Source: an uncultured bacterium
Lineage (GTDB): Bacteria > Arandabacterota > Arandabacteria > Arandabacterales > JALGWA01
Assembly (NCBI GenBank): GCA_964604955.1
Contig: CAZSBE010000002.1
Coordinates: 194 to 64,193 of the forward strand
Direction: 5' to 3'
DNA: 64,000 nucleotides
The notes below the pieces were generated by a model. That model saw only the letters and a list, made by a program, of their open reading frames with translations. It was not told the DNA's origin and did not search any database. This document shows positions 8,188-54,994 of the stretch, piece by piece. The translations under genes and the position numbers were made by a program. Within the stretch, counting starts at the first letter, position 1; each line of letters starts with the position of its first letter.

Positions 8188-9051
8188 CTATTGCCGAGGT
8201 TTGACGAGTTCTTCGTAGGTGTCCGGTCTCCTACCCTCATAAAAATGCCAGAGACCCCTCACGCTTTCAATCAAAGAAAGATCCAGGTCGGCGACAATGA
8301 CATCGTCTCCGGAATCGCTTCCCTTTGCAAGGACTTTGCCCGCCGGGTCGCAGAAATAGCTCGAGCCGTAGTACTTGCCGCTCTCCCAGGGCTTCTCGAG
8401 ACCCACGCGGTTCAGCGCCCCCACGAAATAGCCGTTGGCGACGGCGTGGGCCCGCTGCTCTATATCCCAGAGATGGCGCGACAGCCCCTCGACGGTCGCC
8501 GACGGGTTGAAGACGATCTCGGCCCCTTTAAGACCGAGCGCCCTCGCCCCCTCGGGGAAGTGCCGGTCATAACATACGTAAATGCCCACGCGCCCGAACT
8601 CCGTGTCAAAGACGGGATAGCCCATGTCGCCGGGCTCGAAGTAGAACTTCTCGCGAAAGCCCTCCAGGTCCGGAAGGTGCATCTTCCTGTACTTGCCCAC
8701 GACTTCACCGTCGGTTCCTATGAGCACCGCCGTGTTGAAGTACTTGCCGCCTGCCTTCTCCGCGAGGGGAGCGACGAGCACAATGCCCAGCCGCCTGGCG
8801 ACGTTTCCCATCCTGGCCGTGGTCTCGCCGGGTACGGTCTCGGCGAGGTCAAGCCACCGCCGGTCCTCCCCGGCCGGAAAATAGGGCGCGTAGAAAAGCT
8901 CCTGAAGGCAGACGATGCTGGATCCGCGCGAAGCCGCCTCTTCTATCATGGGAATCTGCCTTGCGATCATGGCCTCTTTTACGGACTGGATCGGGCCCGA
9001 CGCATCGGGGCATCCCGTCTGGATCAAGGCGCATGTCACTGTCCTGGCCAT
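8188..9051 (-). CDS. N-carbamoyl-amino-acid / beta-ureidopropionase-type amidohydrolase (nitrilase superfamily)
   Basis: Nitrilase-superfamily catalytic cysteine context VCYDRHFPE and overall CN-hydrolase fold. It follows the hydantoinase and DPD genes. Confidence 0.8.
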   Translation of the reverse strand: MARTVTCALIQTGCPDASGPIQSVKEAMIARQIPMIEEAASRGSSIVCLQELFYAPYFPAGEDRRWLDLAETVPGETTARMGNVARRLGIVLVAPLAEKAGGKYFNTAVLIGTDGEVVGKYRKMHLPDLEGFREKFYFEPGDMGYPVFDTEFGRVGIYVCYDRHFPEGARALGLKGAEIVFNPSATVEGLSRHLWDIEQRAHAVANGYFVGALNRVGLEKPWESGKYYGSSYFCDPAGKVLAKGSDSGDDVIVADLDLSLIESVRGLWHFYEGRRPDTYEELVKPRQ

Positions 9052-9117
9052 CGCTTTCCTCTCCGGGGAAATGCGCGTACTGATCCCGGCCTGTCTGCCT
9101 TCGGAATCAGGGCTTGG

Positions 9118-9146
9118 CGCCTAAATTAAAGCCGCTACAGGGCGGC
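9118..9146 (-). terminator. Possible intrinsic terminator after the PMT-like gene
   Basis: On the minus strand there is GCCGC-CCUGUA-GCGGC, then UUUAAUUU. The stem is only 5 bp, so this is weak. Confidence 0.25.
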
Positions 9147-9204
9147 AGGATAGTATAACACCGGAGCGGAGGAGTGTCAATCGGGGCAGCGCCGGGGGCC
9201 GGGA

Positions 9205-11619
9205 CTAGGGGCCTTCGAGTCTCCCCAGGGCGGCCTGGGCCTGGTCGCGCGCCGTCCCCGGCGGGGCGGTCTCGAGGTATTTTCTGTACGTCTCGCGGGC
9301 GCGGGCCCCGTCGCCCGTTCTCTCGTATGCCACCGCCAGGTTGCCCCGGGCCGTGAGGAGCAGCGGGCTGGCCTCGAGGGCGCGCTCGAAATAACGGATT
9401 GCCGAATCGGGCTCGTCCGTCCTCAAGAAAGCCAGCCCCATGTCGGAGAGCAGGTTCGCATCATCCGGAGCGACTTCGAGTCCGGCCCTCACGGCACCGA
9501 ACGCCTCGTCGCAGCGTCCCAGACCCATGAGAACCGTAGCCTCCGAATGATAGGGGTGAGGACTGTGAGGCTGGATGTCCCGTGCCGTCCTGATCTGCTC
9601 GATGCCGAGGTCGGGGTTGCCGGTATAGGCCAGGGCTATGCCCAGGCCGATATGGGCGTTGACGGTTGCGTTGTCCCGCGACAGGGCCTCGCGGTAATAG
9701 TGCATGGCCGTGGTGTAATCGCGCTTCCTTGAATAGGCATTGCCCAGGTTGGAGTACATCGGAGCTGGATTCGGGTTGCCCCTGAGGGCCTTTTCGTACT
9801 CGGTGATGGCCAGGTCGACATTGCCGCCCATATAATAGAGGCTGGCGAGCATGTCATGGGCTTCGAAGAAGTCGGGGTCGATGGCGACGGCCCGCTCCGC
9901 CATCAGGAACGACTCGCGCGGCGAGCCCAGCTCGAGAAGAAGTCTGGAGGCGTATATATGCGTGCCCGCATCGTCGCCAGCCGCGGCAACCGCCGCTCCG
10001 ACCGATGCCCTCGCGCCCGCTGTATCCCCGGCCGCTATACACCATCTCGCCAGGTGAAGGTGATACGTGCCGCTGAGAAGCCTCGAGTTGTAGTCCCTCC
10101 TGTCGCCGTCGCGTCCGCGCACCTCAAAGCGCTCGGGCGGCAAGCACTCTCTGCCCTCGCTCTCAAGGGCATACACCATGCCGCAGATATCGGCGTCGTA
10201 CCCGGCGACCACCGGCGGCACGGGCCCCACAAGCGCGAGGTCCGCCGGGCCCAAGGCCTCCACGAACCACTGCACGCATTCATCCACGTTCCGGGGGCCC
10301 GCGGGAAGACCCGCCGCCCGCGGGTTGGACGAGCCCAGCACGAAGACCCGGGCCGGGGCGTTTTCCACAAGCGAGACGTAGAGCAGCGGAAAATCGAGGG
10401 CGCTGCCGCTTCCTATCAGCAACGGCTCCGGGGCGCTCTCATCGCGCGCGCTCTCGACCGCGGCCATCGCATAGTCATGTGCGAACCAGGCGTCATGCCG
10501 CCTCTCGAGCGAGACGAGGTTGGTAACGAATATGAGCGAAACGCCGGCGAGGACGGCCGGCCCCGCCGCCCTGTTGAGCCTCGCCAGTCTCTCGATGAGG
10601 AAGCCGGCGCCGAGGGCGGCGAAGACCCCTACCGTGATGAGGGCCGGGAAGACGTGGCTGTCGATATCCGGGATATTGTATGCGGCCGAGTGGACCCCGT
10701 AGAAAACGAAGACCAAAAGCGCGCCGGCCAGCAGTCTCCATCTCTTGATCGAGACGGCCAGCCCGAGAAGCGCCAGGGCCGAAAGCCACAGGCCCCCCTG
10801 CGCGAACATGAGCCGCAGATAGGCGCCGAAATCGGCGAGCCTCGCGCCGGCTTCGAGGGGTTTCACTCTCCACTTGTAGCCCTGAGCGGTAATGTGGGAG
10901 ATGAAACCGTCAAGCGTCGACGTCTCGCCCCAGGTCAGGGGCGGAGCCTGCGCCGAGCGTATGGGTATGTAAAGCCACACCGTGAGCCCGAGCATCAGAA
11001 AGAGCAGCGCGACGACGACCGCGTTGAGCCTCGGCCTCACCCCCGATACGAGAAGGCCTATTACGGCCGCGGCCAGCGCGTACACCAGGCTGAGGTGATG
11101 GGATACTGCGAGCCCGCCCGCGAGTCCCATGAGCACAAGCACGCTGTCACCGCGCCTCGCGCCGGCCAGGGCAATCAGCAGCAGAGCCGTGACGAAAACG
11201 GCGTTAAGCGTATAGACCTCCGCCCCGGTGGCCTGCAGCCACCAGGCTTCGCGCGTGGCGAGGCCCAGGGCCACCACGACCCCCGCCCACCTTCCGGCCC
11301 CGAGGCCCCTGGCGACCAGATAGACGAAAGCGGTGAGAACCGAGGCGAGAACCGCGGACATGAGATTGTAGCGGTATGCCACCGACCCGAAGGCGAAGAT
11401 GCTGGAGAATATCCTGCCCAGCATGAGATAGAGCGGATAGCCGGGCGGATGCGCGACGCTCAGCGTGCGCGACGCTGCGATCAGCTCCCCGGCGTCCCCG
11501 GGCAGCACGCTGGGCGCCAGCGTGACGATGTAGATGAGAAGGGTCACGAAGAAGATGCAGACACATGCAATAATGTCCGGGCGGGCGCCCGCATCCGGTC
11601 GTCCGGTCAAAGAAATCAT
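9205..11619 (-). CDS. Polytopic membrane protein (DUF2723 / PMT-like GT-C fold) with C-terminal TPR repeats
   Basis: About 11 predicted TM helices in the N-terminal 470 aa. The C-terminus has multiple TPR units (for example AYSRKRDYTTAMHYYREAL). Confidence 0.6.
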   Translation of the reverse strand: MISLTGRPDAGARPDIIACVCIFFVTLLIYIVTLAPSVLPGDAGELIAASRTLSVAHPPGYPLYLMLGRIFSSIFAFGSVAYRYNLMSAVLASVLTAFVYLVARGLGAGRWAGVVVALGLATREAWWLQATGAEVYTLNAVFVTALLLIALAGARRGDSVLVLMGLAGGLAVSHHLSLVYALAAAVIGLLVSGVRPRLNAVVVALLFLMLGLTVWLYIPIRSAQAPPLTWGETSTLDGFISHITAQGYKWRVKPLEAGARLADFGAYLRLMFAQGGLWLSALALLGLAVSIKRWRLLAGALLVFVFYGVHSAAYNIPDIDSHVFPALITVGVFAALGAGFLIERLARLNRAAGPAVLAGVSLIFVTNLVSLERRHDAWFAHDYAMAAVESARDESAPEPLLIGSGSALDFPLLYVSLVENAPARVFVLGSSNPRAAGLPAGPRNVDECVQWFVEALGPADLALVGPVPPVVAGYDADICGMVYALESEGRECLPPERFEVRGRDGDRRDYNSRLLSGTYHLHLARWCIAAGDTAGARASVGAAVAAAGDDAGTHIYASRLLLELGSPRESFLMAERAVAIDPDFFEAHDMLASLYYMGGNVDLAITEYEKALRGNPNPAPMYSNLGNAYSRKRDYTTAMHYYREALSRDNATVNAHIGLGIALAYTGNPDLGIEQIRTARDIQPHSPHPYHSEATVLMGLGRCDEAFGAVRAGLEVAPDDANLLSDMGLAFLRTDEPDSAIRYFERALEASPLLLTARGNLAVAYERTGDGARARETYRKYLETAPPGTARDQAQAALGRLEGP

Positions 11620-43990: not shown

Positions 43991-46234
43991 TTAGATCATG
44001 TTTTCCGGGTCCACGTCTATGCCGAAGCGCACCTGCTCACCGCTCGAGTTCTTCCTGAAAGCATCGAGGCATGCACTTACGAAAGCCGGTATATTGCGGT
44101 TCCTGCTCCCCTTGAGGATGAGATGCCACCTCTGGACGTTCTTTATCCGCGGTATGGGCGCCCGCGACGGCCCCAGGACCTCGACCTCGATGCCCGATTC
44201 CCGTGAGATCTTCCGCGCGAGCCGCGCGAAACCGTAGGCCGCCTGCCGGGCCGACTCCTCGCCGCGCGACTCGGCCACGACTCTCACGAGCCTCGCGAAC
44301 GGCGGGTACGACAGCTCCTCCCGTATCTCGACCTCCTCGGCGAAGAAGCCCTTGAAGTCGTGGTCCGCCGCGAAGTGCAGGGCATGGTGCTCGGGATTGA
44401 ACGTCTGGATTATGACGCGCCCCGGGAACTCGCCCCTGCCCGCGCGCCCGGCCACCTGGGTCAGGATCTGGAACGTGCGCTCGCCGGAGCGGAAGTCGGG
44501 GAGATTCATGCTGACGTCGGCGTTGACGACCACCACCAGCCCCACTCCCTTGAAGTCATGCCCCTTGGCGACCATCTGGGTCCCGACAAGCATGCTCACC
44601 AGGCCGCTGTCGAAGTCGGTGAGGAGTACCTCAGCCGAGCCCTTGAGCCTGGTGGAGTCGCGGTCGAACCTGGCAGCCGGCGCGTCCGGGAACCGCTCCG
44701 CGATGTAGTCCTCTATCTTCTGAGTGCCGGAACCCACGAACTCTATGTTGGCCCCGCCGCATTTCGGGCACGTGTCGCTGCCGGCCTCGCGGTAATCGCA
44801 GTAATGGCATTTGAGCTGCTTCTGCCTTATATGGTAGGTAAGCGTCACATGGCAATTCCGGCACCTGGGTACGAAACCGCAGTCCCTGCACTGTACGAAA
44901 TTCGCGAAACCCCTGCGGTTCAAGAACAGGACCACCTGCTCGCCGCGGCCCAGCGCCTCCTCGACGGCCTTCTCGGCCTCCGGGGAGATGGGGGCGCGGC
45001 CCGCCACGGTCTTCATATCGACGACGGTGACCTCGGGCAGCGATCCGCCGGCTATCCTGTCGGGCATCTCGTAGAGCTCGTACTTGCCGTTCAAGGCGTT
45101 GAAATAGGTCTCGAGCCTCGGAGTGGCGCTCCCCAGGACCACCACCGCCCCCTCTGTCTTGCCCCGCATCAGGGCGACTTCGCGCGCATTGTATCTCGGC
45201 GCGTCCTGCTGCTTGTAGGATGAATCGTGCTCTTCATCGACAACGATGATGCCGACGTTCGTGAAGGGAGTGAATACCGCCGACCTCGCGCCCACGACGA
45301 CGTCTATGGCGCCCGCGATCGCGTCGGTCCAGGTCTGGTATCGCTCTCTGGGGGTCATGCGGCTGTGAAGAAGCGCACAGCGGTCGCCGAAGTAGTTCCG
45401 GACGCGCGCCATCACCTGCGGGGTCAGGCCTATCTCCGGAACAAGGTATATGGCCTTCCCGCCCGAGCTGACCACCTCGGCTATCGCCCTTAAGTAGACC
45501 TCCGTCTTCCCGCTCCCCGTGACCCCGTGGAGGAGAAATGCCTTGAAACCGCCCGCCGCGGCCGCCGCGGTGATCGACCTCAAGGCCCTGTCCTGATGCG
45601 GCGTGAGGTTGTGCGCACCAGGTTCCGGCTCGCCGTGGTCGCGGACTGCAGCGCCGGCGTCAGCGTCCCTTATACCGCGCTTCCTTCCCCTGCGCGGCAC
45701 GACTTCTGTTCCGACGACGCCCGCCTTCTCCAGGGCGTTTACCGAGCCCGCGACGTCGTCCGAGGCGACCTTGCGCTTAAGCGTGTCAAGCCCAAGCGGC
45801 TTGCCTCCGTCCAGTGCTTCGATTATTGCCGCCCGGTCCGGATGCGTGGAGCGGATCACCTCGAGCTCCAGCTGGCTGGGGCGCGATATCAACTTCACGA
45901 CCTGCCTGAAACCCGCGTGCGGCGGGGACATGGCCCCCAGCACCTCTCCCAGGGGGGCAAGATAGTAGTCCGACATCCAGCGCGCCAGTTTCATGAGGAC
46001 GGGGGTTATGATGGGCTCCTCGTCCAGGATGCCCCTTACCGCTTTGAGCTTTCCGTCCCCCGGGCCGGCATGGCCCAGGCCGACGACTACGCCGGCCATG
46101 AGCCGCGTCCTCACCTCGACGGCGACTCGCATGCCGACCGCCAGCCTATCACGAAGGCCGGGCGGGACCGAATAGGTAAGCGTCTTGTCAATGGGAATGG
46201 GAACGGCCACTTCGGCCTTGAGCGCGTTCTGCAA
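43991..46234 (-). CDS. priA: Primosomal protein N' (replication restart helicase PriA)
   Basis: DEXH helicase motifs GVTGSGKT and DEEHD. Cys4 zinc-binding CxxC pairs (CRDCG...CRNC...CHYCD...CPKCG). Confidence 0.95.
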   Translation of the reverse strand: MQNALKAEVAVPIPIDKTLTYSVPPGLRDRLAVGMRVAVEVRTRLMAGVVVGLGHAGPGDGKLKAVRGILDEEPIITPVLMKLARWMSDYYLAPLGEVLGAMSPPHAGFRQVVKLISRPSQLELEVIRSTHPDRAAIIEALDGGKPLGLDTLKRKVASDDVAGSVNALEKAGVVGTEVVPRRGRKRGIRDADAGAAVRDHGEPEPGAHNLTPHQDRALRSITAAAAAGGFKAFLLHGVTGSGKTEVYLRAIAEVVSSGGKAIYLVPEIGLTPQVMARVRNYFGDRCALLHSRMTPRERYQTWTDAIAGAIDVVVGARSAVFTPFTNVGIIVVDEEHDSSYKQQDAPRYNAREVALMRGKTEGAVVVLGSATPRLETYFNALNGKYELYEMPDRIAGGSLPEVTVVDMKTVAGRAPISPEAEKAVEEALGRGEQVVLFLNRRGFANFVQCRDCGFVPRCRNCHVTLTYHIRQKQLKCHYCDYREAGSDTCPKCGGANIEFVGSGTQKIEDYIAERFPDAPAARFDRDSTRLKGSAEVLLTDFDSGLVSMLVGTQMVAKGHDFKGVGLVVVVNADVSMNLPDFRSGERTFQILTQVAGRAGRGEFPGRVIIQTFNPEHHALHFAADHDFKGFFAEEVEIREELSYPPFARLVRVVAESRGEESARQAAYGFARLARKISRESGIEVEVLGPSRAPIPRIKNVQRWHLILKGSRNRNIPAFVSACLDAFRKNSSGEQVRFGIDVDPENMI

Positions 46235-46279
46235 CTTGGTCCTCTTCCGGATGGGTGAAGTCAGGTAGTTCCTGAGGTA

Positions 46280-47395
46280 TTATAATTCCGTCGCGGTGCC
46301 TACTTCAACCGGAACTTCCTCCGGCCGGGGCATGGCGGAGCCGAGTCTCAGGAACTCGGCGGCGATGAGGGGATCGAAATCCCTGCCAATACCCTCCTTT
46401 ATGAACAGCAGGGTCTGCTCGGTGGAGAACGCAGACCTGTAGGGCCGCTCGGATGTGAGGGCGTCATAGAAGTCGACCACCGCTACAATCCTGGCCAGAA
46501 ACGGTATCTCCTCGTCGCGCAGGCCGTCGGGATAGCCCGTTCCCCCGAACCTTTCATGGTGGCTTCTTACGACCGGCTTGGCCCCCTGCAGGAAATCGAC
46601 GCGGTCTATGATGCGCTCGCCGATGATGGGATGCCGCTTGATGATCTTGTACTCCTCCGGCGTGAGCCTCCCGCGCTTGTTCAGAATCTGCCCCCGGACG
46701 CCGATCTTGCCGATGTCGTGAAGCATGGCTCCGTACTGGAGGTCCCTCATCCCGGCCCGCGAAACCCCGAACCTCTCGGCCAGAACGATGGCGTACTGGG
46801 TCACGCGCTTGGAGTGACCCCGCGTATAGGGGTCCTTCGCCTCGACGGCGGCCGCCAGCGCCTCGACGGTTGAGAAATAATTCTTCTCGATGCGATTGAC
46901 CAGCTGGGAGTTCTCGACGATGGTCGCGGCCACGTCTGCGACAAGCGATACGATGGGGATCAGGCTGTCGGAGACATGTGAGCGGTCCCGCATGAAGATG
47001 CTGAGCATGCCGACGCTGCGCTTGCGGTAGGTGAGCGGCGCGCCCACCATGGACTTGAAGCCCTCGCGCCGTACGTACCCGGGCAGGGATGGAGATTCGG
47101 GCGTGATCTCGTCGATTACGGTCGGGCCGCCTTCGGCAAATACCCTCCCGGCGAAACCCCTTTCGTCCAGGATGCGGCTGGCGTAGACGATCTCCCGCTT
47201 GAAGCCCTCCGGGACGCGAAGCAAGAGCAATTCCTCTGCGAATCCGCTGATCTTCAGCGATAGCCCGTCTATTCGCACAAGCGGGTCGAGCGCGAGCGCA
47301 AGCCGCTCGAGAATGCTCTCTATGTCGGCATTTGCCAGAATGCCTTCAGTGGAGAGAAACGGTGCGACCCCGCCGGTCAGGTCGTTGTTTTCCAT
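46280..47395 (-). CDS. GAF domain / HD-GYP phosphodiesterase
   Basis: N-terminal GAF-like domain. HD motif LHDIGKIGV and HHERFGGTGYP. Confidence 0.8.
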   Translation of the reverse strand: MENNDLTGGVAPFLSTEGILANADIESILERLALALDPLVRIDGLSLKISGFAEELLLLRVPEGFKREIVYASRILDERGFAGRVFAEGGPTVIDEITPESPSLPGYVRREGFKSMVGAPLTYRKRSVGMLSIFMRDRSHVSDSLIPIVSLVADVAATIVENSQLVNRIEKNYFSTVEALAAAVEAKDPYTRGHSKRVTQYAIVLAERFGVSRAGMRDLQYGAMLHDIGKIGVRGQILNKRGRLTPEEYKIIKRHPIIGERIIDRVDFLQGAKPVVRSHHERFGGTGYPDGLRDEEIPFLARIVAVVDFYDALTSERPYRSAFSTEQTLLFIKEGIGRDFDPLIAAEFLRLGSAMPRPEEVPVEVGTATEL

Positions 47396-47403
47396 TTTAC
47401 GAC

Positions 47404-47775
47404 CTACCTGTTGAGTATCCCCTCGACCCTTTCTATCAGCCTGCCGGGACTGAACGGCTTGACGACGTAGTCGTCCGCTCCGGCCTCTTTGCCGAGCTTC
47501 CTGTCCACGTCTCTGCCCTTGGCGGTGAGCAGGATCACGGGGATGTTCTTGGTCTGCGGATCGCTCTTCAGCTTCTTACATGTCTGATACCCGTCCATCT
47601 TGGGCATCATTATGTCGAGGACGATCACGTCCGGGCGTTCCTGTCTGGCTTTCTTAATGGCCTCATCGCCGTCCGAGGCAGTCATCACGTCATAGCCTTC
47701 GGCGCAGAAACTGAAGTTCAAGATGTGCTGAATGTACTCTTCGTCGTCCACGACGAGAATCTTTGTCTTGGACAT
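47404..47775 (-). CDS. Single-domain response regulator (CheY-like receiver)
   Basis: DD...D57 context (VIVLDIMMPKMDG) and K (VKPF). 123 aa. Confidence 0.85.
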   Translation of the reverse strand: MSKTKILVVDDEEYIQHILNFSFCAEGYDVMTASDGDEAIKKARQERPDVIVLDIMMPKMDGYQTCKKLKSDPQTKNIPVILLTAKGRDVDRKLGKEAGADDYVVKPFSPGRLIERVEGILNR

Positions 47776-47793
47776 CCTGTCACCTCCCGGTGT

Positions 47794-50361
47794 CTATAGT
47801 GCCGCCACGCTGAGTTCGTTCTGTTTCATGAGTTCATCTTTGCCGATTATCTCGATGAAGTGCTCCACGACGTCCGGGTCGAACTGGGTGCCGCTGCAAC
47901 CCATGAGCTCCTCAATCGCCTCTTCGCGTTTCATCGCCTCCCTGTATGGCCGCTTCGTAACCATCGATTCATATGCGTCGACGACGGCCAGTACCCGGGC
48001 CGCAAGCGGTATCTGGTCGCCGGCCATGCCGCCCGGATAGCCCTTCCCGTCGAAGCGCTCATGGTGATGGAGTATGACTTCCTTGACCTTCTCGAGGAAC
48101 TCGATGGGTGCCAGGATGTCGACGCCGTTCTCGGGGTGGCGCTTGATGTTCTCGAATTCACACGGTCTCAGTTCACCGCGCTTCCGGAGGACCTCGTCTC
48201 CGACCCTTACCATACCGACGTCGTATATGCGGGAAACGTACCTGAGGAGCCTCAAGTCCTCTTCCGGGAGCCCCAGGGACCGGCCGAGTTTCACGACCAG
48301 CCTCGCGGTTTCCTCTCCCCTCTTTGTGAAAGCGAAACGCCGCGATTCGATGAGGCACTGGAGCGAATTCACTATGGAACCGAACTCGCCGCGCACCGCC
48401 CTGTAGTCTCTGAGTTTCTCCAGTATGTAGGCTGCCCGGTCTGCGAGTATTTCAAGGATCTCGGCGTCATTTTCGCCGAAGGGCGTAAGGCTTATCTTGT
48501 TGGTGACGTTGAGTACGCCGATAACGCGCCCGTCCCTCTTCAAGGGCACACTCACCAGCGAGCGCGATTCATAATTGGACCTGTTGGGGCGTCCGAAGCT
48601 GGAGTCGGCTTCGATGTCGCGTATCAGGAGCGGCTTTCCGGTCTGGGCCACCCAGCCCGATATGCTTTCGCCGACCTTCACCCTGGTATTCTTCATGGTC
48701 GCCTCGTCAAGGCCCATCGCGGCGCCGACGTAGAGCTCGTCTCTCTCCTCGCTCACTAGCATGAGTGAAGCCGTCTTGGCTCCCATGACCTCCGCGATCA
48801 TGTCGACGATCAGTTCCGGCACCTCCCTGTCCGCTTCGCTTCCCGCGGGTTCGCCGACAATCTCATTGCTCGTCGGAGCCACGGCCTTCCTCTTGGGCAG
48901 GTTCACGGTGAAACGCGTGCCGCTGCCTTCCTCGCTCTCCACCCAGATCTTGCCGTCATGCCATTCGACGATGTTGTTCACTATGGCGAGGCCCAGCCCC
49001 ACGCCGCCGTAGCGGCGCGTCGCCGAGGAGTCGACCTGGTAGAACCCGTCGAAAATCCTGTCGATCTCCGACTGCGGGATGCCGATGCCGCTGTCTTCGA
49101 CAACTATCTCCACGGCGGAGTCCCCGTCGCTTACGGCTGCGGCGACGCGGCCGCCCTCGGGCGTGAACTTGACGGCATTGGTCACCAGGTTGAGTAGCAG
49201 CTGCTGCAGCATGCCCTCGTCGGCGTAGATGGTGACAGGCCCTTCGCCGAGCTTCAGTTCCAGGTGAATGGCTTTCTTCTCTATGGTCGGCGACAGGATC
49301 TGGCCGACGTGGCGGGCCACCTGGTTGAGGTCGACGGTGCACTTGGCCAATCGCACCTTACCGGACTCCAGATGCGAGAGCTCGAGCATGTTGTCCACTA
49401 TGCTCGTCAACCTCTTCGCCTCCTGCTCGATGATATGCAGGAATTCCAGCTCGGTTTCGCGCGGCGTGTCGCCAAGGTCGTTGGACAGCGTCTCGGCGTA
49501 GGCCCTGATCGAGGTCAGCGGCGTCCTCAGCTCGTGTGATACGGTCGCAACGAAGTTGGACTTTATCTCGTTGAGCTCCTTGAGCCGCTTGGTCGCATCA
49601 CGCAGCTCGACAATATGTTCTTCCAGTTTGCCGTAGAGCCTGGCGTTCTCTATCGCGGTGACGGCCTGGTTGGCGAAGATCTCCAGCGTTTCGATGGTCT
49701 CGGCGCCCGGTACCCTGCGGTCCAGAGGGTCGTCGACCGAGAGGTAGCCTATGAGGCGCTGGTCGCGCGTCCAGAGGGGCACGAAAAGGCTGTCCATGGG
49801 ATGCCACTCGCCGTTGGACCGCTCCCCCAGGTCGGGCACGTAGACTTCGTCTTCCATGTTCCGCCAGAACTCGTGTTCGTGGCCTATGAAGTATGACCCC
49901 GAAACCTCGAATTCGGGCGTCATCCAGGTCTTGAAGGTCTCGAGCGGCACCTCATTGGAGCTCAGTTTCTCGATGGCGTCGGCGGCGAGGCCTGCAAAGG
50001 CCCTGGCCTCGAAGCAGCCGGTGTCCTCGTTGAGGATCCTGAGCAGGACCATCCCGAAGCCCAGGCTCTCCCGGACGGCCCCGACTATCTGGTTGAGAAG
50101 CGGCTGGAGTTCGAGGTTGGCGTTTATCCTGTTGGATATCTCGAGTATCCGGGCGAGGTTGCTGGCGCGGGCGCGCGCGATATGGTCCATCTCCGCCGCC
50201 TTCTGCTTCACCCGCGCGGCCGACCGGTTGGCGCTGAGCTGGCGCCGGATTGCGACAAAAGCGATCTCCGCCAGTATGAGCGCACCTGCTGCGATTGCCA
50301 CGGCGACCGCTGCGGACAGGCCGTGGCCCGAGTGCAACGCGGCAACAAAGTCAGGGATCAT
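47794..50361 (-). CDS. Hybrid sensor: TM / GAF / histidine kinase (HisKA+HATPase) / GAF / HD-GYP-like domain with degenerate HD (YD)
   Basis: H-box VSHELRTPLTSI. HATPase motifs NLVTNAVKF, DSGIGI and GGVGLGLAIV. The C-terminal HD-GYP has HHERFDGKGYP but carries IYDVGM in place of LHDIGK. Confidence 0.8.
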   Translation of the reverse strand: MIPDFVAALHSGHGLSAAVAVAIAAGALILAEIAFVAIRRQLSANRSAARVKQKAAEMDHIARARASNLARILEISNRINANLELQPLLNQIVGAVRESLGFGMVLLRILNEDTGCFEARAFAGLAADAIEKLSSNEVPLETFKTWMTPEFEVSGSYFIGHEHEFWRNMEDEVYVPDLGERSNGEWHPMDSLFVPLWTRDQRLIGYLSVDDPLDRRVPGAETIETLEIFANQAVTAIENARLYGKLEEHIVELRDATKRLKELNEIKSNFVATVSHELRTPLTSIRAYAETLSNDLGDTPRETELEFLHIIEQEAKRLTSIVDNMLELSHLESGKVRLAKCTVDLNQVARHVGQILSPTIEKKAIHLELKLGEGPVTIYADEGMLQQLLLNLVTNAVKFTPEGGRVAAAVSDGDSAVEIVVEDSGIGIPQSEIDRIFDGFYQVDSSATRRYGGVGLGLAIVNNIVEWHDGKIWVESEEGSGTRFTVNLPKRKAVAPTSNEIVGEPAGSEADREVPELIVDMIAEVMGAKTASLMLVSEERDELYVGAAMGLDEATMKNTRVKVGESISGWVAQTGKPLLIRDIEADSSFGRPNRSNYESRSLVSVPLKRDGRVIGVLNVTNKISLTPFGENDAEILEILADRAAYILEKLRDYRAVRGEFGSIVNSLQCLIESRRFAFTKRGEETARLVVKLGRSLGLPEEDLRLLRYVSRIYDVGMVRVGDEVLRKRGELRPCEFENIKRHPENGVDILAPIEFLEKVKEVILHHHERFDGKGYPGGMAGDQIPLAARVLAVVDAYESMVTKRPYREAMKREEAIEELMGCSGTQFDPDVVEHFIEIIGKDELMKQNELSVAAL

Positions 50362-50401
50362 ATTCGCGGTCGTCCCCCCCGTTATCGGCCTGACTCAGGC
50401 G

Positions 50402-52777
50402 TCAGTGGGCGGCCCTGCTGGGCTCGAGCCCGGGCTTGTTCTCCCCGGCGCCGCCCCTTGCCTCGAGCACCCACCTGACCGACTCCATAACGCTGACCAG
50501 CTGGTTCCTTGCGCTCTCGTAGCCGGTGGCCCGGTCAAAGGCGACACCTATCCTGTCAGCGAGAGCCACCAGGAGCGCGAGCTCCTCCCGGTCGAAGACC
50601 CGCGCGCGCTGTTTCCCGCCCTCCACGCCGATTACGCCGATTACGCGCTCCCCGGCGCGAATGGGCGCGAAGGCGCATGGGTACTCTCCAATCGGCGAAT
50701 CCGCGCCTACTTCTAATTCGGCTGCTTCGGCTTCACAGTTGAGGAGAATGGGCCGGCCCCTGTCGAAGACCTCTCTTGCCGGTCCGGCCAGAGTTCCGGC
50801 CTCCCCGGCGGTCCCGCCGGAGGGATCGCCTGAGCCGCCCTCCAGGGCCAGTTCACCGGTGGCGGTGTCTTCGAGGTATATATGGCAGCCGGCCGCTTCC
50901 ATGGTCTTCGAGACCATGTCGGCGACGAGATCCAGCATCTTCCTGATGTCCGGCCGCGAGCTCATGGTATCGAACATGAGGTCGGACGGAACGACCGGCC
51001 TCTGGCTCTTGCCGAAGAGCACGTTCAGGGTCCAGGAGGCCGGGTCATGGGTTTCGGCCCAGATCCTGCCGCCGTGCCTGAGGACTATGTTCCGGGATAC
51101 CTGCAGCGACAGCCCGAGCGAACCCGAATCCGGCGGCGCCTTTTCGTCTCCCCAGACGGCGTTCAGTATGCCCGCGGCATCGATAGACGGGGGCGAGGGC
51201 TGGAAGGACATGCGGATTTTCAGGAAAGACTCTTCCTCGCCGAGACTTATCCTCACGGAAGTGGATTTTTTGGCGAAGCTCACACTGATCTCGACGAGGT
51301 TTCTCAGGAGTAGGTACATCATATCCTTATCTGCATACGCGCTCGGATCGCCTTCGCCGCCCTCGACCACCACGTCTATCTCTCTGTCAACACAGATGGG
51401 TTCATGAATTGCACAGACATCCCTGATGAGCTCGCGAACGCCGACGTTCTCCTGGCGGAGGTCCCCCTCTCCGAACTCCATCCGCGAGAGGTCGACGACG
51501 CTGTTCACCGTGCTTAAGAGTTTTGCGGACTCCTCCACGACCGCGCCCAGGAACTTCCTCTTGAGCGGGAATCCCTGGTCGTCTATACGCTGCAGCAGCG
51601 TCTGCGAATAGCTCTTTATGGCGTCGAGAGGCATCCTCATCTGGCTCGTCACCGTCGATATGAACTCCGACTTGAGCTGGTCGCTGCCGACCAGTTCCCT
51701 GTGGGCGCGCTCGAGTTCGGAGAGTTTCCTCTGGAGCTCCTCGGCCAGCCGCGCCTCCATGATGGAAACGGCCGCGTGGTTGGCGAGTATGGCCAGCAGC
51801 ATGACATCGTGCTCCCCGAACTCCCGCTTCCTGGTGTCTCCGACGTAGAGAACGCCGAAGGGCTCCCCCCTGGCCATGAGCGGGACGGCGAGTATGGACT
51901 TGAGCTTGCCGTAGGTTACGGCCGATGACTGGCTCGACCTGGCGTCTGCCGATGTATCGTTGATTACGAGATGTTCGCCGTTGGTGAGCACCCAGTCCGT
52001 CATGCCGCCCTTACGCACCCTCCACTTGAGCTTACGCTTGAACTCGCTTGCGATGCCCACGGTCACGCTGGACAGAAGGTCCTTCTCGAGAAAGAGCGCG
52101 ACGCTGGCGGTCTCGACGCCGAGAAGCGCCCTGGCATCGCGGGCGAGAATATCCATGATGCCGCCCTGCTCGGTCTCCTGGGAGGTGGCGAGGCTGGTCC
52201 GGTAGAGCTGCACGATGTTGTCCTCGAGCGGGGCGCCTTCAGGGCCGGCCCCGTAGGCGCCGGCCGGAAAGAACTCGGTAGCCCGGGACCCGGCGCGCCG
52301 CGACGTAAGGGACCTGGCGACGGCCGTGAATCCGACGGCGCAAAGCGGTATGGAGAAAAGGAAGTTGTTCGAGTAGCTGCCCAGGTAGGACGCCAGGCCG
52401 CTTCCCATGACAAGCAGCGAGGCGACGACGAGATAGCCGAGTGTGCCGGCCCTTCCGGTGTGTATCAGAAACCCCAGCTGGACCATCACCACGAACCCGA
52501 GCCAAAGTGCCGTATTGAATGAGAAGATCGACAGCAGCGCGAAGGTCGCGGCCAGGTCCAGGCCCAGGAGGTTATGGCAGGTGTCTTTCTTAATGCCGCC
52601 GTCGAGATAGACGCGCCGGGGCACTACAGCCAGCGTGACCACGGCCAGCGCGGTGCTCACGGCGAGATACGTGCCCCTCTCGGCACCGAAGAACGCCGCT
52701 GACGCGGCTATAAAGAGAAGAACGTACGTTCTCGCTTCCAGGAAGAGCCGGGAGCGGGTCATGCGAGATTGTGTCAC
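50402..52777 (-). CDS. Multi-TM GAF-domain sensor with histidine-kinase-like core lacking the phosphoacceptor His (pseudokinase-like)
   Basis: N-terminal TM helices and two GAF-like regions. The dimerisation box reads ISTVTSQMRMPLDAIKSY (Q in place of the conserved H). The HATPase region has the N box but poor D/G boxes. Confidence 0.6.
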   Translation of the reverse strand: MTQSRMTRSRLFLEARTYVLLFIAASAAFFGAERGTYLAVSTALAVVTLAVVPRRVYLDGGIKKDTCHNLLGLDLAATFALLSIFSFNTALWLGFVVMVQLGFLIHTGRAGTLGYLVVASLLVMGSGLASYLGSYSNNFLFSIPLCAVGFTAVARSLTSRRAGSRATEFFPAGAYGAGPEGAPLEDNIVQLYRTSLATSQETEQGGIMDILARDARALLGVETASVALFLEKDLLSSVTVGIASEFKRKLKWRVRKGGMTDWVLTNGEHLVINDTSADARSSQSSAVTYGKLKSILAVPLMARGEPFGVLYVGDTRKREFGEHDVMLLAILANHAAVSIMEARLAEELQRKLSELERAHRELVGSDQLKSEFISTVTSQMRMPLDAIKSYSQTLLQRIDDQGFPLKRKFLGAVVEESAKLLSTVNSVVDLSRMEFGEGDLRQENVGVRELIRDVCAIHEPICVDREIDVVVEGGEGDPSAYADKDMMYLLLRNLVEISVSFAKKSTSVRISLGEEESFLKIRMSFQPSPPSIDAAGILNAVWGDEKAPPDSGSLGLSLQVSRNIVLRHGGRIWAETHDPASWTLNVLFGKSQRPVVPSDLMFDTMSSRPDIRKMLDLVADMVSKTMEAAGCHIYLEDTATGELALEGGSGDPSGGTAGEAGTLAGPAREVFDRGRPILLNCEAEAAELEVGADSPIGEYPCAFAPIRAGERVIGVIGVEGGKQRARVFDREELALLVALADRIGVAFDRATGYESARNQLVSVMESVRWVLEARGGAGENKPGLEPSRAAH

Positions 52778-53757
52778 TCGTCCTCAATCCTTCCGACCGG
52801 GGCCGGATTCCCCTCCTTCCTCCTCTCCTTCACCACCACACTGCCATCGAGCGTCTTGCCGTAGCGTTTGAGCTCCGAGGCTATGTCGCTCAGCCGGGCC
52901 AGGTGGGCGATAGAACCGTTCTCGCTGGAGACGATCGCTATCGTCATGGTGAGCAATGGGAATCTGTCCACCGTCCCCTTGCGGTTTATGACTTCCACGA
53001 AACCTTTCTCGATGTCCTTCTGGTCGAAAAGGCGCGTGATGGTCTTGTCGAAGGTCCTGGTTATCTCCCGGGCGACGAGGTCGCTCTTGTCGGGCGAGGT
53101 GATTACGACGAAGTCGTCGCCGCCGATATGCCCGATGAAGTCGTCGGGGTTGCCGCAGGTCTTGGCGGCGTCGATGAGTATCTCGGCCGTGATCTTGATG
53201 GCATCGTCGCCCCGGCTGTAGCCGTAATAGTCATTGAACGCTTTGAAGTTGTCTATGTCGGCGTACATGAAAGAGAAATCGCCGTTGGACTGGAAACGCC
53301 GTTCGATTTCGCGCTCGATGGAGACATTGCCGGGAAGCCCGGTGAGCGGGTTGGCCTGCCGCTGCAGCTGGCTCCACTGGAGCACGTTCTTGACGCGCAC
53401 CAGAAGCTCCGTTATTGCAAAAGGCTTGGTGATATAGTCATTGGCGCCGTCCTCGAAGCCCTGCAGCCTGTTCTCGAGCTCCGCCTTGGCCGTGACCATG
53501 ATGATGGGTATGTGGCTCGTCTGGTAATTGGACTTGAGGCGCTTGCACAACTCGTAGCCGTCCATGTTGGGCATCATCACGTCGAGCAGGATCAGGTCGG
53601 GCTCGCGTTCGGCCACCCTGCGCAGCGCAATCTCGCCGTCGGCGCAGGTGCATACGTCGTACCCGGCTTTCTCGAGCTGGAAAGTCACTATCTTGCGGAT
53701 GGGTTCCTCATCGTCAACGACGAGTAACCAGGGCTTCCGCGAAGGCCCGTCTTCCAT
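52774..53757 (-). CDS. Response regulator with GGDEF-family domain (signature GGDDF)
   Basis: Receiver with DD...D (LILLDVMMPNMDG). C-terminal GGDEF fold carrying NPLTGLPGN and HIGGDDFVV. Confidence 0.8.
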   Translation of the reverse strand: MEDGPSRKPWLLVVDDEEPIRKIVTFQLEKAGYDVCTCADGEIALRRVAEREPDLILLDVMMPNMDGYELCKRLKSNYQTSHIPIIMVTAKAELENRLQGFEDGANDYITKPFAITELLVRVKNVLQWSQLQRQANPLTGLPGNVSIEREIERRFQSNGDFSFMYADIDNFKAFNDYYGYSRGDDAIKITAEILIDAAKTCGNPDDFIGHIGGDDFVVITSPDKSDLVAREITRTFDKTITRLFDQKDIEKGFVEVINRKGTVDRFPLLTMTIAIVSSENGSIAHLARLSDIASELKRYGKTLDGSVVVKERRKEGNPAPVGRIEDE

Positions 53758-53910
53758 AGTCCCCTACTCCTGATATCTACGGTCTTACCCTGTCTCGCCC
53801 TACGATTCGCAATAAGCGTGCCATCCACGCCGGAACCGTGGTAACAGGGGGTGGTGCGATTAACCCTTTAGAATCAAAGGATTAGGCCCCGAGGCGGCGC
53901 CTCTCAGAAA

Positions 53911-53924
53911 GCGGAGCCGGGGCC
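53911..53924 (-). terminator. Possible short hairpin terminator downstream of tsaD
   Basis: AGCCG-GGGC-CGGCT palindrome with a U-rich tract (CUUUCUG) following on the minus strand. Weak. Confidence 0.2.
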
Positions 53925-53965
53925 GGCTGGCGCAGGGTGCATTGCAGATCGCAACGACGGTTGCA

Positions 53966-54976
53966 TCATGCAAGATGCGCGCGCTCATAGCGCCTTGTCG
54001 AATAGGGGGTTGCCGAGAGGCCGGTAGTCTCGCCCGCCATGAGTTTCAGGTAGCCCGCCTCCGCGATTATGGCGCCGTTGTCTGTGCAGAACTCGGCCGG
54101 GGGCAGCAGCACCCGGAGGCCCACCGCCCCGCCTTCCTTCTCCAGCCTGGCGCGAAGGCGGGAGTTGGAGGCCACGCCTCCAACGGCCGCTATGGTGTCG
54201 ACCCCCGCCGCCCGGGCCGCCGCGATGGTCTTTATGACGAGAACGTCAACGGCCGCCTCCTGGAAGCTGGCGGCTATGTCGGACGCGGACTCCGCGGTCA
54301 TCTCGCCCTTCGTGTCATCGATGAAGTACCTCACCGCCGTCTTGAGGCCGCTGAAAGAGAAGTCGTAGGCCTTATCGAGGATGGGCCGCGGGAAGTCGAT
54401 GGCGTCGGGACGGCCGCGCGCCGCCACCCTGTCGACTTCAGGCCCCCCGGGATAAGGCAGGCCGAGCATCTTGGCCACCTTGTCGAAGGCCTCGCCCGCG
54501 GCGTCATCGCGGGTCGCTCCGATGAGCGACATCCGGAGACCCTCTTCAACAAGGAACAGATGCGTGTGCCCGCCGGAGGCGACGAGGCTGACGAAGGGCT
54601 TTTCGATTTCGCCGAATGAGAGGTACACGGCCGCCACATGGGCCTCGATATGGTCGACCCCGGCCAGGGTCTTGCCCGTCGCGAAACACAGGCTCTTGGC
54701 GAAGGAAACGCCAACGATGAGCGCGCCGATGAGACCCGGGCCGAGCGTAACGGCGACGGCGTCGATTGAATCCAGGTCCGCGCCGGCCTCCCTGAGGGCC
54801 TCATTCATTATGGGAACGATCGCCTTGATGTGCGCGCGGGATGCGATCTCGGGAACGACCCCGCCGAACTCGCCGTGAATCGCCTGTGAGAGGACGATGT
54901 TGGACAGGAGCCTGCCGTCTTCCAGCACGGAAGCGGCGGTCTCGTCGCAGGAAGTCTCTATTCCGAGGATTCTCAT
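53966..54976 (-). CDS. tsaD: tRNA N6-adenosine threonylcarbamoyltransferase TsaD
   Basis: RILGIETSCDETA start and HxEAH metal motif (HIEAHVAAV). Full-length Kae1/TsaD similarity. Confidence 0.9.
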   Translation of the reverse strand: MRILGIETSCDETAASVLEDGRLLSNIVLSQAIHGEFGGVVPEIASRAHIKAIVPIMNEALREAGADLDSIDAVAVTLGPGLIGALIVGVSFAKSLCFATGKTLAGVDHIEAHVAAVYLSFGEIEKPFVSLVASGGHTHLFLVEEGLRMSLIGATRDDAAGEAFDKVAKMLGLPYPGGPEVDRVAARGRPDAIDFPRPILDKAYDFSFSGLKTAVRYFIDDTKGEMTAESASDIAASFQEAAVDVLVIKTIAAARAAGVDTIAAVGGVASNSRLRARLEKEGGAVGLRVLLPPAEFCTDNGAIIAEAGYLKLMAGETTGLSATPYSTRRYERAHLA

Positions 54977-54994
54977 CGCGGACACGTCATAGAG

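Follow-up and report, generated by a model that had tools for sequence, protein, structure and literature searches.

In the 64,000-nt stretch of DNA analysed here (the window), a gene at positions 47794..50361 of the minus strand, the strand of every window feature listed below, encodes an 855-residue sensor histidine kinase that ends in a degenerate HD-GYP domain. We found that this domain has lost residues at three places of the catalytic site, that these losses recur across a large set of kinase fusions and that the domain is nevertheless maintained by purifying selection, like the kinase core and unlike a decaying sequence. As five other metal ligands are kept, the domain appears from its sequence to be remodelled rather than dead, and there is in our estimation an even chance that it acts as a non-hydrolysing receptor for cyclic di-GMP (c-di-GMP) tethered to the kinase, a reading drawn from the residues it retains and from analogy with known receptors.

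Kinase architecture and substitutions in the HD-GYP domain

The initial annotation of the window had described one polypeptide with a transmembrane (TM) region, a GAF domain, HisKA and HATPase domains, a second GAF domain and an HD-GYP-like domain, and this architecture was borne out by Pfam matches, by the hydrophobicity profile and by the intact kinase boxes. All five domains score above the Pfam cut-offs, and the parts of the gene are as follows.

47794..50361 (-): whole gene, TM-GAF-HisKA-HATPase_c-GAF-degenerate HD-GYP sensor histidine kinase, 855 residues (list of open reading frames, Pfam, homologs)
50242..50331 (-): membrane-anchor helix, residues 11-40 (Kyte-Doolittle peak 2.49)
49648..50109 (-): GAF domain 1 (GAF1), about residues 85-238 (PF01590, 27.5 bits)
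49360..49563 (-): HisKA/DHp, residues 267-334 (Pfam 71.6 bits; phospho-acceptor H276 in SHELRTPL)
48889..49221 (-): HATPase_c, residues 381-491 (Pfam 114.5 bits; N, G1, F and G2 boxes intact)
48814..48888 (-): linker from the kinase core to the module of GAF domain 2 and degenerate HD-GYP, residues 492-516 (mean identity 0.17; predicted local distance difference test (pLDDT) score below 50 at model residues 24-35)
48418..48813 (-): GAF domain 2 (GAF2), residues 517-648 (Pfam 90.2 bits, a whole-protein GAF score)
47869..48360 (-): degenerate HD-GYP domain, residues 668-831 (PF13487, HD_5, 134.7 bits against a cut-off of 27.2)
48310..48330 (-): FTKRGEE, residues 678-684, where YTxGHSxRV would be expected; no first metal-ligand His, its column being occupied by R681 or G682
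48211..48228 (-): IYDVGM, residues 712-717, at the place of LHDIGK; Y713 for the metal-ligand His, M717 for Lys, D714 kept
48034..48069 (-): HHHERFDGKGYP, residues 765-776, HH metal ligands and GYP motif, retained

The open reading frame begins with ATG downstream of a G-rich stretch that resembles a ribosome-binding site, and its product is 100% identical to the NCBI protein P0001. The kinase core is complete, comprising the H-box SHELRTPL (49516-49539, minus strand) and the boxes NLVTNAVKF, DSGIGIP, FDGFYQV and GGVGLGLAIV, and it gave NCBIfam kinase-core matches of up to 270 bits, yet under the equivalog cut-offs. Residues 11-40 are the sole candidate membrane helix and a periplasmic domain is absent; GAF1 is likely the primary cytoplasmic sensor. 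At the other end of the protein, the HD_5 match spans profile positions 4-170 of 170. On sequence grounds, the most economical reading of the gene product is a functional membrane-anchored histidine kinase/phosphatase with a tethered GAF-HD-GYP module resembling that of PmGH, an HD-GYP enzyme of Persephonella marina.

Several lines of alignment define the substitutions in this domain. First, IYDVGM fell on LHDIGK in four independent alignments. A phmmer search against the PDB placed 'riyDvgm' on 'lhDigk' in V-cGAP3 (5z7c), PmGH (4mcw) and PA4781 (4r8z), and ungapped BLASTP against the intact HD-GYP protein encoded two genes downstream paired MLHDIGKIGV with RIYDVGMVRV in the same register and, further along, DPYTRGHSKRVTQY with RFAFTKRGEETARL; MAFFT alignments also returned the same register. 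Y713 therefore lies on the HD His in the alignments to three solved enzymes and to the neighbouring protein, in agreement with the His-to-Tyr substitution read initially at this metal-ligand position, and the C-terminal 200 residues of the kinase contain no other HD dipeptide, so that an intact dyad elsewhere in the domain is not found. Second, the first metal-ligand His is lost in the alignments to the solved enzymes and to the neighbour (FTKRGEETA versus YTRGHSKRV), and an Arg occupies the acidic third-metal position, equivalent to E185 in PmGH. Third, M717 replaces the Lys of the HDxGK motif. The losses at the catalytic site are thus three: the first His together with the third-metal acidic residue, the dyad His (Y713) and the motif Lys (M717).

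Conversely, the ligands D714, H742 (in RHP), H766 and H767 (in HHE) and D795 are retained. H742, H766, H767 and D795 are the equivalents of PmGH H250, H276, H277 and D305, and all four are conserved in at least 95% of the orthologs described below. The HHExxDGxGYP segment, already recognised in the initial annotation, is present as HHHERFDGKGYP. Canonical HD-GYP enzymes coordinate one of their metals through four residues, namely the first His, both residues of the HD dyad and a late Asp. Two of these four ligands are lost in the window kinase and the motif Lys is gone as well, so that hydrolysis of c-di-GMP at a useful rate has most likely been lost, judging from these residues; the second metal site (D714, H742, H766, H767) is intact. 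The residues with which PmGH and DvhD, a degenerate HD-GYP protein discussed below, contact c-di-GMP are also retained, namely the GYP Tyr (Y775), L731, M800 and R804-P-Y806-R807. R804-P-Y-R807 fits the motif RxY[K/R], and the KPG motif of PmGH reads KRG in the window kinase; a preprint by Galperin and Chou gives RxY[K/R] as a c-di-GMP specificity motif and the GYP Tyr, RxY[K/R] and the KPG main chain as the contacts in PmGH (bioRxiv 10.1101/2021.11.05.467447).

An AlphaFold2 (AF2) model of residues 480-855 reached a pLDDT of 83.6, and its best Foldseek match was PmGH (4mcw; E 2e-17, 348 aligned columns), covering both the GAF and the HD-GYP domain, followed by PA4781 (4r8z) and c-di-GMP-bound DvhD (9rbz). 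No internal segment of the kinase is less conserved than the 25-residue linker 492-516, which joins HATPase_c to GAF2 and varies in sequence between orthologs. Given its lack of conservation and the low confidence of the model there, the GAF2-HD-GYP half looks, in the model, like a tethered module rather than one that is rigidly and allosterically coupled to the kinase core.

Conservation of the kinase-fused HD-GYP domain

A word-indexed search yielded 120 homologs at 40-100% identity, 118 of which share the same seven precomputed Pfam domains; where sources carry an organism name, they are mostly metagenome-assembled genomes (MAGs) of Candidatus Eisenbacteria. We aligned the 114 full-length members with MAFFT and refer to them as orthologs. 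In this alignment the first-His column is unconserved, as it is in the wider family, position 717 reads Met in 111 and Leu in three sequences, and position 713 reads Tyr in 37, His in 76 and Phe in one. By contrast with this alternation, which switches state at least four times by Fitch parsimony on a UPGMA tree, D714, G716, M717, H742, H766, H767, E768, D771, G772, G774, Y775, P776, D795, M800, R804 and R807 are each conserved in at least 95% of orthologs.

To obtain a wider set, HMMER was run exhaustively against 1.84 billion sequences, each representing a cluster at 50% identity. Motif screening of the best 150 matches gave 42 kinase-HD-GYP fusions, hence 43 sequences with the window protein, all of which match HisKA, GAF_2 and HD_5 and 39 of which also match HATPase_c. 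The fusion architecture noted initially for a single protein is therefore conserved in the 114 orthologs and recurs in 43 fusions of histidine kinase, GAF and HD-GYP. Among these 43 representatives, the phospho-acceptor H276 is kept in every one and position 717 is never Lys (Met in 23, Leu in 18, Ile and Val in one each), with position 713 again divided between Tyr (27), His (15) and Phe (one). The retained ligands are present in 42/43 (D714, H766) or 43/43 (H742, H767, D795), and of the contact residues Y775 is found in 43/43 and R804 in 37/43; E768, G772, G774 and P776 are each present in 43/43. As a control, we scanned contigs with the generic pattern HHE[RW]xDGxGY for unrelated HD-GYPs, at most 40% identical to the window kinase, and among the matches listed the motif was HDxGK in 70 of 84 motif matches from 80 such loci.

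From these alignments, the signature of the subfamily appears to consist of the missing first His, a hydrophobic Met or Leu for the motif Lys, an aromatic Tyr or His at the dyad and a constant kinase fusion. The initial annotation had treated the YD dyad as the defining lesion, a view that does not hold, as the loss of the first His and the change of Lys to Met or Leu are universal and position 713 alternates between Tyr, His and Phe; YD is accordingly one allelic state of the subfamily signature and not a private mutation. As His, Tyr and even Phe interchange at 713, selection for metal binding probably no longer acts on this residue, which may instead be kept for an aromatic or hydrogen-bonding side chain.

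The degenerate HD-GYP domain is maintained by purifying selection like the kinase core and is not decaying. Its mean identity to the window protein is 0.51, compared with 0.59-0.60 for HisKA and HATPase and 0.17-0.21 for linkers and tails, and 25 of its columns are conserved in at least 95% of sequences. The ratio of nonsynonymous to synonymous substitution rates (dN/dS), taken solely from the comparison with the 83%-identical ortholog of locus L001, since that of L085 was left out because of indels, is 0.05 for the HD-GYP domain, 0.06 for HisKA and 0.05 for the GAF domains, rough values given that dS is near saturation. GAF1 has 39 of 166 columns conserved in at least 95% of orthologs over a hand-set range (residues 70-235).

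The N-terminus of the kinase is poorly conserved among orthologs. In a comparison of P0032, P0104 and P0095, the membrane anchor varied, with the hydrophobic segment absent in some orthologs and about five such segments in one, and membrane attachment of the family seems from these sequences to be lineage-specific. Two further loci are of note. An Aminicenantes MAG (L080), met in the control scan, contains a 988-aa open reading frame with H-box and G2-box motifs before a canonical LHDVGK HD-GYP (match at 9001-9552), and by these motifs kinase-HD-GYP fusions with an intact dyad appear to exist as well. A Thermotogaceae MAG (L035) encodes two large open reading frames (1025 and 1121 aa) with the motifs LYDLGM and LHDVGM and no H-box.

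Candidate functions of the degenerate domain

Degenerate HD-GYP domains and c-di-GMP-responsive kinases are both already known, and for GGDEF and EAL domains, degenerate forms that act as c-di-GMP receptors are well established; to our knowledge, the first structural proof of an HD-GYP receptor, for DvhD of Desulfovibrio vulgaris, dates only from 2026. DvhD (dCache-PAS-HD-GYP; 9rbz, 9rc0), whose HD-GYP domain is also degenerate and which is a structural match of our model, accommodates c-di-GMP in the canonical site in the absence of metal and does not hydrolyse it, and binding pivots the preceding helical stalk (PMC13090378). When mapped through the phmmer alignment, five of the eight canonical-site contacts of DvhD are identical in the window kinase (L577, Y621, M646, R650 and Y652, corresponding to L731, Y775, M800, R804 and Y806). 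On the other hand, hardly any metal ligands remain in DvhD (SQ for HD, MN for HH) whereas the window protein keeps five, and the output of DvhD is control of a periplasmic protease, with PAS and HD-GYP coupled by a rigid helical stalk, whereas that of the window protein is a kinase. PmGH (4mcw, 4mdz) is the best match in sequence and fold to the GAF2 and HD-GYP half and shares with it HHExxDGxGYP, RxY[K/R] and the ligands equivalent to H250, H276, H277 and D305. PmGH, however, is a stand-alone active trinuclear-iron enzyme, while the window domain sits behind a complete histidine kinase and, unlike PmGH, is without the first His, the HD His and the motif Lys and has Arg at the E185 equivalent. 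Because the second metal site, D795 and the residues with which PmGH and DvhD grip c-di-GMP are kept, we favour the reading of the domain as a non-hydrolysing c-di-GMP receptor tethered to the kinase, a reading that we hold to be about evenly poised.

CckA is a kinase controlled by c-di-GMP. Likewise, c-di-GMP directly controls the output of the kinases RavS (PMC6707612) and ShkA (PMC6969517); RavS, ShkA and CckA bind it via a PAS, pseudo-receiver or CA domain, and none of them via an HD-GYP-type module. The closest functional analogy is SgmT of Myxococcus xanthus, which also combines a kinase carrying an N-terminal GAF domain with a C-terminal degenerate domain of c-di-GMP metabolism, and whose degenerate GGDEF domain is a c-di-GMP receptor that sequesters the kinase spatially (PMC3509222). 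SgmT differs in being a kinase of the hybrid type, with a receiver in the same chain (GAF-HK-REC-GGDEF, HK denoting histidine kinase and REC receiver), and in that its receptor is a degenerate GGDEF domain, where the window kinase has a degenerate HD-GYP. A non-His residue at the HD position, as in the window kinase, is found in PA2572 of Pseudomonas aeruginosa (YN-GYP, with Tyr at this position), for which experiments show biological relevance but no hydrolysis of c-di-GMP (PMC3774798), and in VC1087 and VCA0895 of Vibrio cholerae, in which the HD dyad is absent and which are likewise inactive yet biologically relevant (PMC4212101). These proteins are response regulators or membrane proteins and not kinase fusions, and PA2572 has also lost the Asp that the window kinase retains as D714.

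Several points weigh against the receptor reading. The DvhD contact residues K582 and E668 are not conserved in the window kinase, and its family, unlike DvhD, has kept five of the seven or eight canonical metal ligands with little or no variation; the sequence is compatible with a site that is still metallated and possibly slowly catalytic. The flexible, unconserved linker is such that tight allosteric coupling is not evident in the model. The local source of c-di-GMP is itself uncertain because the neighbouring candidate cyclase carries a GGDDF motif, for which cyclase activity has been demonstrated once, in GSU1937 (PMC8835794). Finally, Lysobacter RpfG, which lacks 'a key His', is robustly active according to the Galperin and Chou preprint (bioRxiv 10.1101/2021.11.05.467447).

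The alternative that survives best, which we nonetheless consider distinctly unlikely, is that the domain is still a phosphodiesterase, for c-di-GMP, pGpG or cyclic GMP-AMP (cGAMP), with a remodelled metal centre, in which case the protein would be a bifunctional kinase-phosphodiesterase. The centre would hold either a single metal at D714, H742, H766 and H767 or, in another version, a second metal via residue 713 (Tyr or His), D714 and D795. Such a selected metal site is suggested by these five kept ligands, invariant or nearly so in the 43 representatives and the 114 orthologs, and the substrate-contact residues are kept as well, but two of the four first-site ligands and the motif Lys are missing across the family. 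Similarly, HD is still read at 713 in 76 of the 114 orthologs and Tyr is able to ligate Fe(III) in other phosphoesterases, but Phe, which is also tolerated at 713, cannot bind metal. The requirements derived from PmGH are not universal, with VCA0681 being active without a required Asp (PMC4212101) and RpfG, as mentioned in the preprint, without its key His; yet no activity was seen in those HD-GYPs without a dyad that have been assayed (PMC4212101, PMC3774798), nor in V. cholerae VC2497 and VC2340, each of which lacks a single required residue. Moreover, in the window's clade a fully canonical GAF-HD-GYP is separately encoded in the same operon. The suggestion of the initial annotation that the domain is non-catalytic is thus a reasonable prediction in view of the inactivity of dyad-less HD-GYPs and the three missing residues, but the five kept ligands leave room for residual metal binding or catalysis. 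Its further proposal, that the domain senses c-di-GMP and gates kinase output, is a putative one, and the unconserved linker speaks for tethering over rigid allosteric coupling.

More unlikely still, in our judgement, is that the domain serves as a nucleotide-independent scaffold for protein-protein contacts or dimerisation, for example by docking the response regulator with the GGDDF motif (REC-GGDDF), the single-domain REC or the pseudokinase paralog encoded alongside it, a role of the kind suggested for inactive members of the RpfG family such as HnoD. Inactive HD-GYPs that work by protein contacts are documented, as Galperin and Chou describe for HnoD, which inhibits HnoB, and likewise for RpfG; the GYP motif is invariant, the kinase strictly co-occurs with REC-GGDDF in eight loci and a flexible tether fits a recruitment module. 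A scaffold, however, leaves unexplained the invariance of five buried metal ligands and of the nucleotide contacts RxYR and M800. Lastly, His (CAY) to Tyr (TAY) is a single transition and the contig that holds the window was assembled from a metagenome, but the idea of a private mutation, of a mistake in sequencing or assembly or of a decaying domain without function is ruled out by the recurrence of Y713 in independent assemblies (37/114 orthologs, 27/43 distant representatives) and by purifying selection (dN/dS of about 0.05, 25 columns conserved in at least 95%).

In the literature searches that we ran, neither a kinase-fused HD-GYP subfamily marked by this signature nor any characterised member was found to be described. 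A search combining HD-GYP, HisKA and HATPase, judged mostly by titles and abstract openings, found no characterised fusion of a histidine kinase to HD-GYP, and another found no paper in the library searched that connects Eisenbacteria to c-di-GMP. The Joint Genome Institute (JGI) labels some homologs 'histidine kinase/HD-GYP domain-containing protein (c-di-GMP phosphodiesterase class II)', and the signature provides a simple annotation rule, namely that members should not be called 'c-di-GMP phosphodiesterase class II'. If c-di-GMP is bound, the members would be the first kinase-coupled HD-GYP receptors and a new route of c-di-GMP feedback onto two-component signalling. The natural variation within the subfamily could also help to establish which of the HD-GYP ligands are indispensable.

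The tsaD-priA operon and its probable receiver partners

The kinase gene belongs to a minus-strand run in which consecutive genes are separated by anything from a 4-nt overlap to 45-nt gaps. A scan for promoters and terminators found nothing above shuffle expectation inside the operon, which is weakly consistent with co-transcription. Apart from the kinase itself, the run comprises the following genes.

53966-54985 (-): tsaD (gene order)
52774..53757 (-): REC-GGDEF response regulator (motif GGDDF), a candidate cyclase and possible second recipient of phosphate (Pfam; syntenic in all loci examined)
50402..52777 (-): tandem paralog of 791 aa, a pseudokinase (Pfam, inspection of boxes)
47404..47775 (-): single-domain receiver (REC) of 123 aa, probable phosphotransfer partner (intact DD/D/T/K)
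46280..47395 (-): stand-alone GAF-HD-GYP of 371 aa (DPYTRGHSKRV, LHDIGK and HHERFGGTGYP intact)
43991-46234 (-): priA (gene order)

We examined eight orthologous loci from across the phylum (L001-L004 and L085-L088, including the 2.69-Mb chromosome CP070702.1), and the core order tsaD, REC-GGDEF, (paralog), kinase, REC, priA is kept in all eight. The signalling cassette (43991-54985 in the window) is bounded by the housekeeping genes tsaD and priA in all the Eisenbacteria-type loci examined, and such a stable placement is unusual for signalling genes. The receiver gene that the initial annotation had placed immediately downstream of the kinase is indeed found there, with its start 18 nt past the kinase stop codon and intact DD/D/T/K residues, and REC is present in 8/8 loci. 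That annotation had missed the remaining operon context, namely REC-GGDDF, the pseudokinase paralog and the intact GAF-HD-GYP two genes downstream.

The REC-GGDEF protein reads GGDDF for GG[D/E]EF, invariantly in all eight orthologs aligned, and GYxRGD for GHxxGD, and an RxxD I-site is absent. The stand-alone GAF-HD-GYP, 29% identical to the C-terminal half of the kinase, is by its intact motifs likely the real c-di-GMP phosphodiesterase of the operon. It occurs only in the window's clade, which includes L001 and L002 (10967-12082) and L085 (9997-11115), and a separate canonical GAF-HD-GYP is absent from L003, L004 and L086-L088. We also considered whether YD is linked to the presence of this downstream gene and rejected the idea, as P0032 and P0114 have YD without such a gene.

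Taken with the receptor reading, these genes would form a circuit with putative phosphotransfer partners, direction of regulation and feedback sign. The kinase would phosphorylate two targets, the single-domain REC encoded downstream and the REC-GGDDF protein encoded upstream; REC-GGDDF would make c-di-GMP, which in the window's clade the neighbouring intact GAF-HD-GYP would degrade; and the kinase's own HD-GYP domain would read the resulting c-di-GMP level and thereby shift the balance of kinase and phosphatase activity, access to partners or localisation. A bolder extension, possible though on the whole doubtful, is that kinase-fused HD-GYPs with [Y/H]DxG[M/L] constitute an undescribed and widespread class of receptors with a remodelled, probably single-metal site, that they act as a kinase-phosphatase switch driven by c-di-GMP or by a related nucleotide such as pGpG, and that they form with their neighbours a self-contained tsaD-priA phosphorelay and feedback circuit throughout Candidatus Eisenbacteria.

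The paralog at 50402-52777 appears by sequence to be a tandem duplicate of the kinase that has decayed to differing degrees across genomes. In the window, its H-box His is replaced by Ser (TSQMRMPL), neither the N-box Asn nor the G1 box survives, and deletion of the HD-GYP domain leaves a protein that stops shortly after GAF2. In L085 (4173-7004) the paralog slot holds a pseudokinase that retains IYDVGM, in L004 (5689-8004) and L087 (3687-6596, with its own REC) an intact kinase, and in L086 and L088 a GAF-only remnant.

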